Positions 357 through 21,645 of a stretch of DNA of 21,645 nucleotides are shown in pieces (position 1 is the stretch's first letter; every line of letters starts with the position of its first letter). This DNA comes from a bacterium (lineage in GTDB: Bacteria > Bdellovibrionota_C > UBA2361 > CALJRW01). A program made the position numbers and the translations under genes. The notes below the pieces were generated by a model, which worked only from the letters and a program-made list of their open reading frames with translations, did not search any database and was not told the DNA's origin. The stretch lies in the NCBI GenBank assembly GCA_031385045.1, contig JANNBC010000005.1:1-21645 (forward strand), given 5' to 3'.

Positions 357-1322
357 CTAATTACGATGCTCAATTAGGTGGTGGAGCATTGGTAGTCTTG
401 GTGGAAATAAGCCTGCTGGGTATACTTCAGTGAAATCTCCTCCTAGAATACTTTGATATACTTCATTGGCATATTCACAAAGATTTTTTGCGTAATTAAT
501 AAATTGCTTTCTAAGCTCTCTGTTTCCAGTAATACACCACATTTTTCTGCCAGTCCGGTTTGGTTTGTATTTTAAGTCTATTCCTTGGTTCTCGAGTTTT
601 GCTCTTCCCATGAAATCAGTTTTTTCTTGATAGATTGCCGATTGAATTTCTTTGATCTTTTCATGGATGGTTTTATTGATTTTGTTTATTTCTGCAGGGT
701 CTTTGATCTTAAATGATTTCATCCAAGCATTTGGATTAAATTCAAAATTGCCTTTGGCTGGATTATCCTTAACTAGTAATTTGCGCATCTTCTCAAAGAA
801 AAGATGTCCTTTATCTTGGGGTATTTCAAAGAGGGAGTCGCGACGGATGTAGTTGCACTTCATCTTGAAAGTATTTGCTTTATAGTATTCCCATGTACTT
901 AGGCCTGGATACTTATTAATTGATTCTATTAATCCATCCTTGACTGGGTTGGTATAAAGATAAGCGATCTTATTGATGACATCTTCTCTGGTTAGAAGTA
1001 CTGGGGAGTCATATCTTTCGCACCACACAGTTCTTTTCTTTCTTCCTAAGATTCTATTTAGATAATGGGCTGATTCAGTTTTAAATCTTTCCATAAATTT
1101 TGGTAAATCTAGTGGGTTTTCAATTCTTACAATCATATGGATGTGAGTTCCATTGACTATGAAATGATTGATTTCTAGTGGGTGATGTTTGAAAGCTCTG
1201 ATTAAAGCGGACTTTAGAAGAAATTTCACTAGAGGATTTGCAGGCAACATGATTCCTTCTTCCACGCTGAGAGTTACGAAGTGGATCTGGTTGTTTAGTA
1301 TTATTTTTCTTAGGCGAGGCAT
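357..1322 (-). CDS. HUH/Y1 tyrosine transposase, IS200/IS605 superfamily, RAYT (TnpA-REP)-like, with C-terminal extension
   Basis: 321 aa; N-terminal MPRLRK..HFVT, HUH motif (NGTHIHMIV), VWCERYDS, catalytic Tyr in YLYTNPVKDGL, all typical of RAYT-type Y1 transposases. No adjacent tnpB. Confidence 0.85.
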   Translation of the reverse strand: MPRLRKIILNNQIHFVTLSVEEGIMLPANPLVKFLLKSALIRAFKHHPLEINHFIVNGTHIHMIVRIENPLDLPKFMERFKTESAHYLNRILGRKKRTVWCERYDSPVLLTREDVINKIAYLYTNPVKDGLIESINKYPGLSTWEYYKANTFKMKCNYIRRDSLFEIPQDKGHLFFEKMRKLLVKDNPAKGNFEFNPNAWMKSFKIKDPAEINKINKTIHEKIKEIQSAIYQEKTDFMGRAKLENQGIDLKYKPNRTGRKMWCITGNRELRKQFINYAKNLCEYANEVYQSILGGDFTEVYPAGLFPPRLPMLHHLIEHRN

Positions 1323-7188: not shown

Positions 7189-7488
7189 CTAAATCAAATC
7201 TAGCAGGGCCTTTATTTTAGTATTTGCTTCAATTGGATGTCGAAGTTTTTTGTTGAGTTTAATTGTATAACGGTTTCTTCTCCCGATACGCTCTCTTCGG
7301 AGGTATCCTTCAGCTTCTAAGTCAGAAAGAATTCTAAGAACTGCCCTCTCAGTAATTCCGACATGAATAGCAATCTCTTTTACTGGCAAATCTGCTTTGC
7401 GGTGTAAGCAAAGCAGTACATGCCCATGATTACTCAAAAATGTCCATGTAGACTTTGCTAAATTGGGGCTTTGGCCTGCATTCTTCAT
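7189..7488 (-). CDS. Winged-helix transcriptional regulator (ArsR/MarR-like), divergent from sbtAB
   Basis: WTFLSNHGHVLLCL..EIAIHVGITERAVLRILSDLEAEGYL.RERIGRRNRY..LRHPIE. ATG at 7488 preferred over GTG at 7512 because of the promoter position. Confidence 0.85.
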   Translation of the reverse strand: MKNAGQSPNLAKSTWTFLSNHGHVLLCLHRKADLPVKEIAIHVGITERAVLRILSDLEAEGYLRRERIGRRNRYTIKLNKKLRHPIEANTKIKALLDLI

Positions 7489-7494
7489 TAATTT

Positions 7495-7523
7495 AGTATG
7501 CGATAAAAACACATGCTTTACAA
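7495..7523 (-). promoter_or_regulatory. Sigma-70 promoter for the regulator (leaderless)
   Basis: Minus strand TTGTAA-N17-CATACT-N6-ATG(7488). Confidence 0.5.
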
Positions 7524-7524
7524 T

Positions 7525-7539
7525 ACATGAATTTTATGT
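7525..7539. promoter_or_regulatory. Imperfect palindrome, candidate operator between the regulator and sbtA
   Basis: ACATGAA-T-TTTATGT, 6 of 7 positions symmetric, in the short divergent intergenic region. Confidence 0.4.
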
Positions 7540-7557
7540 CACATATAGCCCCCTTAT

Positions 7558-8544
7558 ATGAACGACATTCTTCAAACCAACCTCCTAAGCCCAATCACCT
7601 TGTGTTTTATCCTTGGAATATTTGCAAAACTAATACGCAGTGAACTTGCTCTTCCGAAAGATATTTATATTGGAATTTCGATTTATCTTTTACTTGCTCT
7701 TGGCTTAAAAGGTGGCGTGGAACTTGCTGAGGCTCCCCTTGACTCGATACTAAAGCCTGCCATCATTACCTTACTTCTCGGTATAATTACACCGATATCA
7801 GCTTATCTAATACTTCGTCGACTTGGAAAATTTTCAGTGTCTAATGCTGCTGGAATCGCTGCTCATTATGGCTCGGTCTCAGCAGTTACATTCCTAGCGG
7901 CTCAGTCATTCATTAGCGAAATGTCACTAAAAGATCCGATGTTAGCACCGCTTGAAGGATTCATGCCAACGCTATTAACCCTTCTGGAAGCCCCAGGCAT
8001 TCAGACGGCTCTGATGATCGGTGTTATTAATTCCGCTAGTGAGGGCAAGTTACTTTCAAAGGCATTTCATGAAATGTTAACAGGCAGAACAACAATCTTG
8101 CTTGTGGGGGGGCTAATTGTTGGTGCTCTTATTGGTCATAAGAACTGGGAAGTGATTGCTCCATTTTATGATACTAAAGGCGCCGTCTTTCGGGGACTGC
8201 TTTGTTTGTTCTTACTGGAGATGGGACTAATCGCTGGAGCCCGAATGGGCGACCTTAAAAAGGCTGGCATTTTTCTGATTTTTTTTGGAACAATTGTTCC
8301 TATAATCCATGCCACTCTTGCTATCGTACTTGGATATTGGGCTGGGCTTTCAGTCGGGGGATGTACGGTCCTTGGTGCGATGGCGGGGAGTGCTTCGTAC
8401 ATAGCTGCTCCTCCTGCTGTTCGAATGACGTTACCTGACGCTAACCCAGCTTACTACTTAACTGCGGCTCTAGCGATTACTTTTCCGTTTAACTTAGTAA
8501 TTGGTATACCGATTTATTTTGAAATTTCTAAAATGTTACACTGA
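7558..8544 (+). CDS. sbtA: Sodium-dependent bicarbonate transport family permease (SbtA / Sbt_1)
   Basis: IYLLLALGLKGG, AAHYGSVSAVTF, FLLEMG, SASYIAAPPA, ITFPFN are family signatures; adjacent PII-like gene. Confidence 0.9.
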   Translation: MNDILQTNLLSPITLCFILGIFAKLIRSELALPKDIYIGISIYLLLALGLKGGVELAEAPLDSILKPAIITLLLGIITPISAYLILRRLGKFSVSNAAGIAAHYGSVSAVTFLAAQSFISEMSLKDPMLAPLEGFMPTLLTLLEAPGIQTALMIGVINSASEGKLLSKAFHEMLTGRTTILLVGGLIVGALIGHKNWEVIAPFYDTKGAVFRGLLCLFLLEMGLIAGARMGDLKKAGIFLIFFGTIVPIIHATLAIVLGYWAGLSVGGCTVLGAMAGSASYIAAPPAVRMTLPDANPAYYLTAALAITFPFNLVIGIPIYFEISKMLH

Positions 8545-8559
8545 TTTTTAAGAGGAATT

Positions 8560-8865
8560 ATGATAAAACTTACTACTTTGAAACTTGTCACGATAATTGC
8601 TGAATCAATCCTAGAAGACAAAATATTATTAGGTATCAAAGACAATGGTGCCAAGGGATATACAGCCATGTCTTCTCACGGTAAAGGCTCTCGGGGTACA
8701 GGGACTGGCGAAATCCCCGGTGCGAATATCAGAATTGAAACTCTTGTCAGTCCTGAGGTCGCTGAAAAAATTATGGAGTATATCTCTAGTAGTTATTTTA
8801 AAAACTATGCAGTGATCTGCTATGTAGTCGAAGCTAGTGTGCTTCGGGGAGAGAAGTATACTTAA
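8560..8865 (+). CDS. sbtB: PII-like signal transduction protein (SbtB-like)
   Basis: LVTIIAESILE..GAKGYT..GKGSRG..NIRIETLV..VLRGEKY; SD (AGAGGA) upstream; directly follows sbtA. Confidence 0.85.
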   Translation: MIKLTTLKLVTIIAESILEDKILLGIKDNGAKGYTAMSSHGKGSRGTGTGEIPGANIRIETLVSPEVAEKIMEYISSSYFKNYAVICYVVEASVLRGEKYT

Positions 8866-20374: not shown

Positions 20375-21211
20375 TTATGCTTGAGGTTGAATTTCAACAG
20401 CAACAAAACTGTCTTTCTTCGTAAACTCTGGCTTACCTTCTTGACCACGGGCCTTAGGGTTAAAGCTTAAACGTCCTAGAGCAATTTGATCAGCTACAGC
20501 ATTTGTAAACAATTCAATAGCCCGACGAGAATCGTCATTTGTTGGAATTGGGAAATCGATCAATGAAGGATCTGCGTTAGTATCAACAAGTGCAATAACA
20601 GGAACTCCTAGTTTTCGAGCTTCTTCTACTGCAATTGAGTCACGGCTAACATCAACAACAAATATAAAATCAGGAACACGTTTCATGTCACGAACACCTG
20701 CTAAGTTAACTGCAATCTTATCGATCTTACGAGTAATTTGTAGTTTTTCTTTTTTACCAATACGAATATCAGAACCTGGCTCGTCAGCTTTCTTTAGTAA
20801 TGTTTCTAATCGATCCATTTTAGAGATTGAACGACGGATTGTTTCAAAGTTTGTTAACGTTCCACCCAACCAACGGTTGTTGATGTAATAAGCTCCACAA
20901 CGAGTAGCAGCTTCTTGCACAGCACCACGAGCTTGCTCTTTAGTTCCAACAAACATAAATGTTGCACCACGAGAGGCAGCTTTCTTAATCATTGGAGCAG
21001 TCTTAGCCCAATAATTAACTGTTAAATCTAGATTGATTACGTGAACATCACCTTTCTTACCGTAGATGTAAGGTAACATTTTAGGATTCCAGCGATCTAC
21101 TTTATGTCCAAAGTGAGCACCAGACTCAAGCAGAGTTTCTAATGTTATTTCTACCGGAGCGTACTCTGGCTTTTCAGTAACAGCTTCAATTGTTTCGTTT
21201 GTTTCAGTCAT
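20375..21211 (-). CDS. rpsB: 30S ribosomal protein S2
   Basis: LLESGAHFGH..RWNPKM, FVGTK, RWLGGTLTNF, LVDTNADP..PIPTNDDS. Start reassigned to ATG at 21211 (SD AAGGA); the track start at 21310 lies within the promoter. Confidence 0.98.
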   Translation of the reverse strand: MTETNETIEAVTEKPEYAPVEITLETLLESGAHFGHKVDRWNPKMLPYIYGKKGDVHVINLDLTVNYWAKTAPMIKKAASRGATFMFVGTKEQARGAVQEAATRCGAYYINNRWLGGTLTNFETIRRSISKMDRLETLLKKADEPGSDIRIGKKEKLQITRKIDKIAVNLAGVRDMKRVPDFIFVVDVSRDSIAVEEARKLGVPVIALVDTNADPSLIDFPIPTNDDSRRAIELFTNAVADQIALGRLSFNPKARGQEGKPEFTKKDSFVAVEIQPQA

Positions 21212-21222
21212 TTTTTTCCTTA

Positions 21223-21289
21223 GTTTATTCCTCCCTTTCACATTGATACCCAAGAATTGGGCACAACTAAGTTGTTTGAAAGGTGTGTA
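21223..21289 (-). ncRNA. rpsB 5' leader, S2 autoregulatory (t44-like) structure
   Basis: Minus strand ACACA-CCUUUCA..ACAAC-UUA-GUUGU-GCCCAA-UUC-UUGGGU..UGAAAGG-GAGGAAUAAAC: closing 7-bp stem, two inner hairpins, and the CACAC...GUGC...GGAGG pattern of S2 leaders. Confidence 0.7.
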
Positions 21290-21300
21290 AATTTTGCTGA

Positions 21301-21329
21301 ATAATAGCAATTGCTTAGGTTTTTGGCAA
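21301..21329 (-). promoter_or_regulatory. rpsB operon sigma-70 promoter
   Basis: Minus strand TTGCCA-N17-TATTAT with extended TG, placed directly before the leader. Confidence 0.75.
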
Positions 21330-21645
21330 ATATACTAAGCGACATTGAAAATTACCGAAAAATACAAAGGCGCTTAGTATATCAAGTGCGAAGCACTTGA
21401 AGCGACCCTTGGGGGTCGCTAAAGTATTGAGCCTTATTTTATAAGGCTCAATACTGGGGAAGACAAATAGACTAAAACCCCAATGAACTAAAAATGCGAT
21501 CCGCATTTTTCCTAGCCGTTCGGTAAAACCTTGTATGTTGAAAAAGTTCTATTTATCTATAAATTTAGATAAACAAGTCCCTGGAGTAGTAGACCGAGAA
21601 AAACCTGTGTAAACGACACGACCATTAGATAGGTCACTACTCCAG
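21330..21645. repeat. Chain of inverted repeats/hairpins (structured ncRNA or MITE/REP cluster), runs to the window end
   Basis: Perfect stems at 21330-21382 (12 bp), 21382-21400 (8 bp), 21401-21420 (8 bp), 21423-21455 (15 bp), 21490-21510 (9 bp), 21552-21573 (8 bp) and 21581-21645 (10 bp). Confidence 0.8.

Follow-up and report, generated by a model that had tools for sequence, protein, structure and literature searches.

A hairpin cluster upstream of rpsB is a composite of a MITE-like repeat and the left end of an IS110-group element with a predicted bridge RNA

Introduction

The window analysed here is the whole 21,645-nt contig C28 of genome G000, a 2.83-Mb assembly of 61 contigs with 36.8% G+C and 95% completeness. 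Hairpins are densely packed in its last 316 nt (21330-21645), upstream of the predicted rpsB promoter, and this raises the question of what they belong to: one large non-coding RNA, the end of an element, or an accumulation of palindromic elements. All three had been offered in a sequence-only reading of the window. G001, a sister species, and G002, a second relative in the family, were used for comparison.

Results

Hairpins of the cluster

There are exactly seven maximal perfect stems (at least 8 bp, loop of at most 50 nt) between 21330 and 21645 (Table 1). They have the lengths of 8-15 bp and the positions given in the sequence-only reading, and the stem listing includes its four back-to-back hairpins at 21330-21455, one with GCGAAGC. 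No shuffle came close: in 300 dinucleotide shuffles there were no such stems in 237, one in 60, two in 2 and three, the maximum, in a single case. The RNA folding z-score of the region is -9.1 on either strand. The last hairpin had been described as enclosing two sub-hairpins. Its fold consists of a closing stem, an internal loop and a terminal GUGU/ACAC hairpin; GTGT/ACAC is therefore the terminal hairpin, but GACC/GGTC extends the closing stem and is not a separate sub-hairpin. This hairpin does stop exactly at the window edge, and the reason is that the contig, which the window covers in full, ends where the assembly breaks inside a repeated element.

A scan of the region with the Rfam 15 covariance models gave no match at the gathering score; the nine matches at E values up to 10 were all weak and far under the cut-off, and none was credible. 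No tRNA or tmRNA was found and nothing exceeded the cut-offs of the Rfam families, sRNAs and CRISPR repeats included; the sequence-only reading had likewise recognised no tRNA, tmRNA, RNase P or CRISPR features. A terminator scan found none within the hairpin region.

Searching for further copies, as had been proposed, was informative: BLAST and profile searches of the genome found them, and they split the region at 21531/21532. The first part, 21331-21531, is a multicopy hairpin repeat, and the second, 21532-21645, is the left end of an IS110 element. Each is seen separately elsewhere in the genome. 'Element end' and 'accumulation of palindromic elements' were thus both right, and the region is a composite of two mobile elements, each of a known kind.

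Table 1. Features of the hairpin cluster and its surroundings (window coordinates)
Feature	Position	Strand	Basis or remark
rpsB (ribosomal protein S2)	20375..21211	-	PF00318, E 6.6e-81; neighbour, outside the element
Predicted rpsB promoter, TTGCCA-17-TATTAT with TG	21301..21329	-	Consensus scan; conserved in G001
Left 201 bp of ~216-bp TA-bounded multi-hairpin repeat (MITE-like)	21331..21531	+	Profile matches in the genome
Left imperfect terminal inverted repeat, 27 bp, TATACTA-n5-CATT-n5-TTACCG	21331..21357	+	Consensus built from 35 left ends and 31 right ends; starts with target TA
Hairpins H1-H4 of the repeat, back-to-back	21330..21455	+	Stems; compensatory changes across copies; H2 with GCGAAGC loop
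H5, fifth repeat module, split by the IS	21468..21531	+	Alignment of 35 copies; inner stem 21490-21510
IS110 left target, GTAAAAC + core CT (21530-21531)	21523..21531	+	Within the repeat's right terminal inverted repeat
Left non-coding end of IS110-group element, truncated by contig end	21532..21645	+	Identical in C10, C25, C26 (twice)
Predicted -10 box, TATGTT	21534..21539	+	Completed by TTGACT of the right end, 17 bp away, when the element is an excised circle and not otherwise; function by analogy with IS621
5' stem-loop of predicted bridge RNA	21552..21573	+	Fold of left end
Target-binding loop of predicted bridge RNA	21581..21645	+	Fold; same layout in 7 homologous loci
Left target guide, GAAAAACCT	21598-21606	+	Matches left flank
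Right target guide, CCATTAG	21622-21628	+	Complementary to right flank
Stem 1	21330-21382		12 bp, loop 29
Stem 2	21382-21400		8 bp, loop 3; carries GCGAAGC
Stem 3	21401-21420		8 bp
Stem 4	21423-21455		15 bp
Stem 5	21490-21510		9 bp
Stem 6	21552-21573		8 bp
Stem 7	21581-21645		10 bp, loop 45

Anatomy and distribution of the repeat

The window holds all but the final 16 bp of this copy of the repeat. These are found on the other side of the IS, where contig C35 ends. Synteny with G001 identifies this contig end as the far side of the locus; it holds the IS right end and then the last repeat bases. There are 58 profile matches to the repeat in G000, and 66 loci when whole- and part-element profiles are used. 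The copies are 210-249 bp long, start TATACTA and finish TAGTATA, and none of the 66 loci is inside any ORF of at least 90 aa. Near-complete copies number 25 (200-248 bp, mean pairwise identity 0.80). The terminal inverted repeats are imperfect, with 17 of 27 consensus positions common to left and right ends. In the three genomes of the family, G000, G001 and G002, the 27-bp end pattern was counted 42, 16 and 40 times, respectively, and never in reversed controls; it was found once each in two of the other 88 genomes of the order. A sequence search with the whole repeat among 40 relatives found it in G001 only. The repeat is short, non-coding, multicopy and intergenic, and it has terminal inverted repeats; both are features by which MITEs are recognized.

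The five modules are strongly palindromic. Across 35 related copies, 24 of 59 consensus pairs occur as more than one Watson-Crick pair type, and departures from Watson-Crick pairing on the + strand comprise 45 G-T, 21 A-C and 40 others; because the copies are related, these counts are not independent. The copies show that the palindromes are maintained, a pattern that selection on RNA or ssDNA and arm-to-arm repair would produce alike. Other copies have an optional 30-nt hairpin inserted in the loop of the H5 inner stem.

A hairpin of ~30 nt with the core GCTTTAGCGAAGG is a small REP-like repeat in its own right, present at 36 places in G000 (a few probably by chance), for example at C26:162852, C55:18712-19571 and ~14170 (-) of the window. 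It is located in the H5 loop of some repeat copies and within other repeat families. At least three further families of multi-hairpin repeats were seen in G000 (examples at C2:6029-6201, C7:14446-14730, C5:5949-6223 and C53:22715-23031), with modules swapped and nested among families.

At two sites the repeat is shared between the sister genomes in opposite orientation. For locus L013 and C26:95061-95277 of G000 both flanks are homologous; for L009 and C45:62476-62690 only the left flank is. Such pairs may reflect either inversion in place or a hot spot for insertion.

What moved the repeat

IS630-family elements with TATAG ends in the same register are present in G001 and G002. The terminal repeats of the G002 element begin TATAGTA; their positions 19-27 read AAATTTCCG, which falls in the same 27-bp frame as AAATTACCG in the left end of the repeat. 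One of the further repeat families of G000 also has TATAG ends, which match the IS630 termini of G001 and G002; this sister family fits the G002 ends better than the TATAC repeat does. Within the 95% complete G000 assembly there was no IS630: PF13358 (DDE_3) gave no match, PF13565 gave sub-threshold matches only, and tblastx with the G001 element found nothing. No autonomous element with TATAC ends was found among long ORFs between repeat modules or among the collapsed repeats listed.

Ten G001 repeat loci were compared with G000, giving one clean empty site, two shared sites and seven uninformative cases; three of four further G000 repeat flanks were unmatched in G001 and the other was too diverged. 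The length of the empty site in G000 for a G001 copy fits a 2-bp duplication, although both dinucleotides have diverged: the empty genome has TG there, and the right end of the filled site has CA. The empty rpsB site is compatible with insertion at TA, but its right flank has diverged by ~11 nt. We propose that the repeat is a non-autonomous MITE-like element, probably moved in trans by an IS630-type transposase.

A different mover would be an HUH enzyme. The repeat might be a REPIN- or BIME-like unit spread through ssDNA hairpins by a RAYT-like Y1 protein, which would leave the IS110 part unchanged. G000 does have two Y1_Tnp (HUH) genes, one of them inside the window, and no IS630 match; the repeat is built of modular hairpins and occurs as inverted doublets and tandem copies. 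Additionally, a GNA triloop, a known stable DNA mini-hairpin, is retained in 30 of 35 copies and never inverted, and the + strand gives the better DNA fold in 28 of 31 copies. However, repeat copies flank neither intact Y1 gene (the nearest are ~9 kb and ~20 kb away), so the adjacency typical of REPIN and RAYT was not found. The outer 27-bp motif, moreover, is in register with the IS630 terminal repeats of a family relative, and the TA ends are like those described for RUP, ERIC and Correia (PMC2229807). We regard spread by an HUH enzyme as unlikely and favour the IS630-type transposase.

The Y1_Tnp protein of the window (357-1322, -) has 321 aa and a long C-terminal part. Y1_Tnp is also found at ~104 kb on C26 (L029:898-1824), with fragments on C33, C34, C55, C56 and C58. 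Several partial relatives, at 45-83% identity, are located close to the ends of contigs. A second gene, beside metK, is only distantly similar (27% over 86 aa). The first ~150 bp of the window are another collapsed repeat.

It is also conceivable that the repeat, whatever moved it, is retained for a role that it plays as folded RNA or single-stranded DNA, such as in mRNA stability or termination. The co-varying pairs, the excess of G-T over A-C on the + strand and the insertion of the optional hairpin within a loop would all fit such a role. On the other side, arm-to-arm repair of DNA palindromes yields perfect compensation too, and inverted H4 loops exist. Copies show no preference of orientation relative to genes (n=27: 11 divergent, 6 convergent and 10 co-directional), and their sites are mostly unshared between the sister species. 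A function of this kind is, in our view, quite improbable.

The IS110 element

The 114 nt from 21532 to 21645 are identical at five places (C10, C25, C26 twice and C28). In C25 they run 9 nt further, and in C10, where the same 114 nt are internal, the extension sought beyond 21645 was obtained: the left end continues into a further hairpin and a 323-aa DEDD recombinase ORF. The ORF matches PF01548 (E 8e-21) and PF02371 (E 3e-18), both above cut-off. The only solved relatives of the protein are the IS621 (E 3e-36) and ISCro4 (E 1e-35) recombinases; it aligns with IS621 over residues 11-317 and retains the GID, EATG, DxxD and ES motifs. We take these motifs to be catalytic, the first three acidic. 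The element is IS621-like and measures 1234 bp between two CT cores. About 224-239 nt of non-coding DNA lie upstream of the gene at the left end and the right end is short; no long sub-terminal inverted repeats were seen when the IS110 ends were read by eye.

Ten right ends were assembled, identical except for one T in two of them, and the depth of the IS body is ~6-8 times that of the flanks in sequencing runs X1, X2 and X4. There are therefore roughly ten recent, near-identical copies, collapsed by the assembler. All five assembled left ends begin after AAAACCT, and the repeat's own end follows nine of the ten right ends. Empty copies of the repeat read AAAAC-CT-AATGG (AAAACCTAATGGG at the target), and filled copies have AAAACCT at the left and CTAATGG at the right.

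The exception is the right end in C10, whose flank (C10:4534-4500) continues as non-repeat DNA after CTAATGGG and yet matches the right guide 7/7. A contig of run X2 confirmed this junction. The C10 copy may be an off-repeat insertion or a rearranged site, and it may join the flanks of two loci, because no contig spans a whole copy.

The nearest IS110 relatives found are 41-47% identical. G001 has distant members only (28-31%), outside the repeat, and the left-end pattern is absent from G001 and G002.

Predicted bridge RNA and its guides

Only the last 114 nt of the cluster are likely to belong to a functional RNA, a predicted bridge RNA; this class of RNA has been described, but no Rfam 15 family matched it here. 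The fold of the left end has a three-domain layout in which the donor-binding loop lies past the end of C28. The left target guide GAAAAACCT was compared with the left flanks of all five copies: it equals that of C10 at 9/9 positions and each of the remaining four at 8/9. The right guide CCATTAG pairs with the right flank at 7/7 positions in 10/10 right ends. The left donor guide AGAGTCTCT equals the left side of the computed circle junction at 9/9 positions and the right donor guide CAAG (4 nt) pairs with its right side. The same computed joining of right and left ends creates a promoter-like TTGACT-17-TATGTT. Neither a circle junction nor an empty-site joint was seen in the contigs of four sequencing runs, in which rare forms tend to be lost.

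Fourteen homologous loci were fetched and 12 viewed; seven of them, representing five distinct elements of 41-47% identity, could be parsed with both ends and flanks, the guide register being assigned by eye in place of the automatic parse in three of the seven. In all seven the right guide matched its own flank 7/7, and the left guide matched at 5-8/9 positions, although the sequences differed from element to element. The predicted guides thus co-vary with the insertion sites across homologues. In three homologous left ends (L044, L045 and L047) an additional 130-200 nt of palindromic DNA separate the start of the element from its target-binding loop.

Within the genome there are six unfilled sites with a CT core and at most one mismatch from the predicted target, five of them in repeat ends; three further repeat ends, also unfilled, differ solely by a CC core. 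The element has every feature of the IS110 bridge-recombinase group that can be tested in sequence.

Position beside rpsB

Names inferred from Pfam families place rpsB first in a gene run rpsB-tsf-pyrH-frr-uppS-cdsA-rseP. The repeat starts 2 bp past the predicted -35 box of rpsB and the transcribed direction of the IS110 element points away from the gene. The sequence-only reading was correct in placing the cluster upstream of the rpsB promoter. However, the orthologous site in G001 is empty, with the break at TA, and yet promoter and leader are conserved there, so the tie to rpsB is positional. The rpsB neighbourhood looks incidental to the element.

The 5' leader of rpsB (21212-21300, -) is near-identical in G001; one of its stems shows a compensated change, from CCCAA/TTGGG here to CCTAA/TTAGG there. 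It has no Rfam match; we presume that it is the S2 autoregulatory leader. Elsewhere in the window (7189-8865) an HTH regulator is next to genes for an SbtA-type bicarbonate transporter and a PII-like (SbtB-like) protein.

Discussion

We conclude, with a probability of about 0.93, that the cluster arose by nested insertion: a MITE-like repeat landed at rpsB, and an IS621-like IS110 element with a bridge RNA then inserted inside its right terminal repeat. The composite anatomy, the boundaries, the copy numbers, the matches between guides and flanks and the empty sites are all established from sequence data; transcription, circle formation and catalysis are inferred by analogy with IS621, and the identity of the repeat's transposase is inferred as well.

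In the proposed history a ~216-bp non-autonomous MITE with a TA target and 27-bp imperfect ends would first have inserted at a distance of 2 bp from the rpsB -35 box, on its upstream side, moved in trans, probably by a transposase of the IS630 type. The IS110 element would then have inserted at the CT core inside the right terminal repeat. By analogy with IS621, it would excise as a circle in which the joined right and left ends form the sigma-70 promoter TTGACT-17-TATGTT, and transcription of the left end would give a bridge RNA of ~180 nt, in which a 5' stem-loop is followed by loops that bind the target and the donor. Of these, the DEDD recombinase would use the guides GAAAAACCT and CCATTAG, pairing with both strands of AAAAC-CT-AATGG, while the donor guides AGAGTCTCT and CAAG would pair with the circle junction, and recombination would take place at CT. 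With a dispersed intergenic repeat as its target, the element could insert in dozens of places without harm, and every copy struck would have its terminal repeat split.

That the 316 nt instead form one large structured ncRNA with pseudoknots, or an rpsB-linked regulatory leader, is highly improbable. The low folding z-score and the many compensatory changes in the hairpins would suit it. However, the two halves occur independently in the genome and are joined at just five assembled loci, therefore the region is not a single RNA and the 'large ncRNA' of the sequence-only reading was wrong as one unit. The cluster is missing from the orthologous G001 site and folds alike on both strands, and the predicted rpsB transcript, which begins downstream of it, does not include it. 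The first pseudoknot does have the claimed complementarity (TTACCGAA with TTCGGTAA), but these are the inner hexamers of the repeat's two terminal inverted repeats; the second spans the insertion junction between CCT and TGTAT and would be possible in IS-filled copies alone. A fold-back chimera at the contig end, suggested by a last stem that closes exactly there, can be dismissed, since these 114 nt lie within C10, continue for 9 nt more in C25, and belong to an IS that independent runs carry at several-fold depth.

In IS621 the bridge RNA comes from the left end and has one loop that binds the target and another that binds the donor (Durrant et al. 2024, PMC11208160); 9-nt left guides, a CT core, a junction promoter, insertion into a dispersed palindromic repeat and one natural guide-target mismatch are also described there. 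The present element shares this plan, its junction promoter being a predicted one. In contrast with IS621, its right target guide has 7 nt, longer ones being mentioned in that paper for some orthologues, its target is not a REP but a terminal repeat that belongs to a MITE-like element bounded by TA, and its host lineage is another. Dispersed palindromic repeats are known insertion sites of IS621, ISPpu10 and ISPa11. ISPpu10 and ISPpu9 in the REPs of Pseudomonas putida (10.64898/2026.03.19.712850; see also PMC12288879) likewise use a multicopy intergenic palindromic target, with duplicated CT and embedded in a stem-loop, and the surrounding hairpin is reported to be needed by ISPpu10; unlike theirs, the target hairpin here is the long A+T-rich arm of a ~80-nt module.

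Transposon-end targeting has also been published for IS1111 members; IS4321 and IS5075 target transposon terminal repeats. A known RNA-guided DEDD element likewise aims at a terminal inverted repeat that belongs to a different mobile element; the present one differs in being of the IS110 group, with the non-coding region upstream and without long sub-terminal repeats, and in that the victim is a short chromosomal MITE-like repeat. The repeat itself resembles RUP, ERIC and Correia, which according to PMC2229807 are ~100-200 bp, non-coding, intergenic and highly folded, with TA termini and terminal inverted repeats. RUP is tied there to IS630 by terminal similarity, and the IS630 link of the present repeat is likewise proposed from similarity of ends. 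The five-hairpin modular build, the internal TATAC..GTATA units and the 27-bp bipartite imperfect ends set it apart from these three, and among 91 genomes searched it is confined, two single end-pattern matches aside, to the three of this family.

No report of an IS110-group element aimed at a MITE was found in the open literature searched. Approximately a fifth to a quarter of the near-complete repeat copies have been hit recently by the IS110 element. The 14-bp target is wholly within the terminal repeat, therefore each insertion splits an end that a transposase would need. This raises the tentative idea, which we hold at somewhat under even odds, that an RNA-guided element feeds on, immobilizes and may even curb an IS630-type MITE whose terminal repeat, recognized by the transposase, contains the whole target, the MITE perhaps being a structurally selected single-stranded element that can flip in place, as the two sites with opposite orientations in the sister species would allow.

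The way in which this hairpin chain was resolved carries a caution: Rfam scans miss bridge RNAs, and these RNAs are located where contigs break. The element adds an apparently active low-GC bridge recombinase, judging by its identical ends and ~10 copies, with a fully readable 14-bp target and donor, and it would be a candidate for orthologue screens. To the natural targets on record for IS110 elements, namely REPs, attC sites and transposon ends, it adds a MITE-like terminal repeat. The known IS110 mechanism is unchanged, and the locus, though neat, is an ordinary case in which mobile DNA of two known kinds has become joined.
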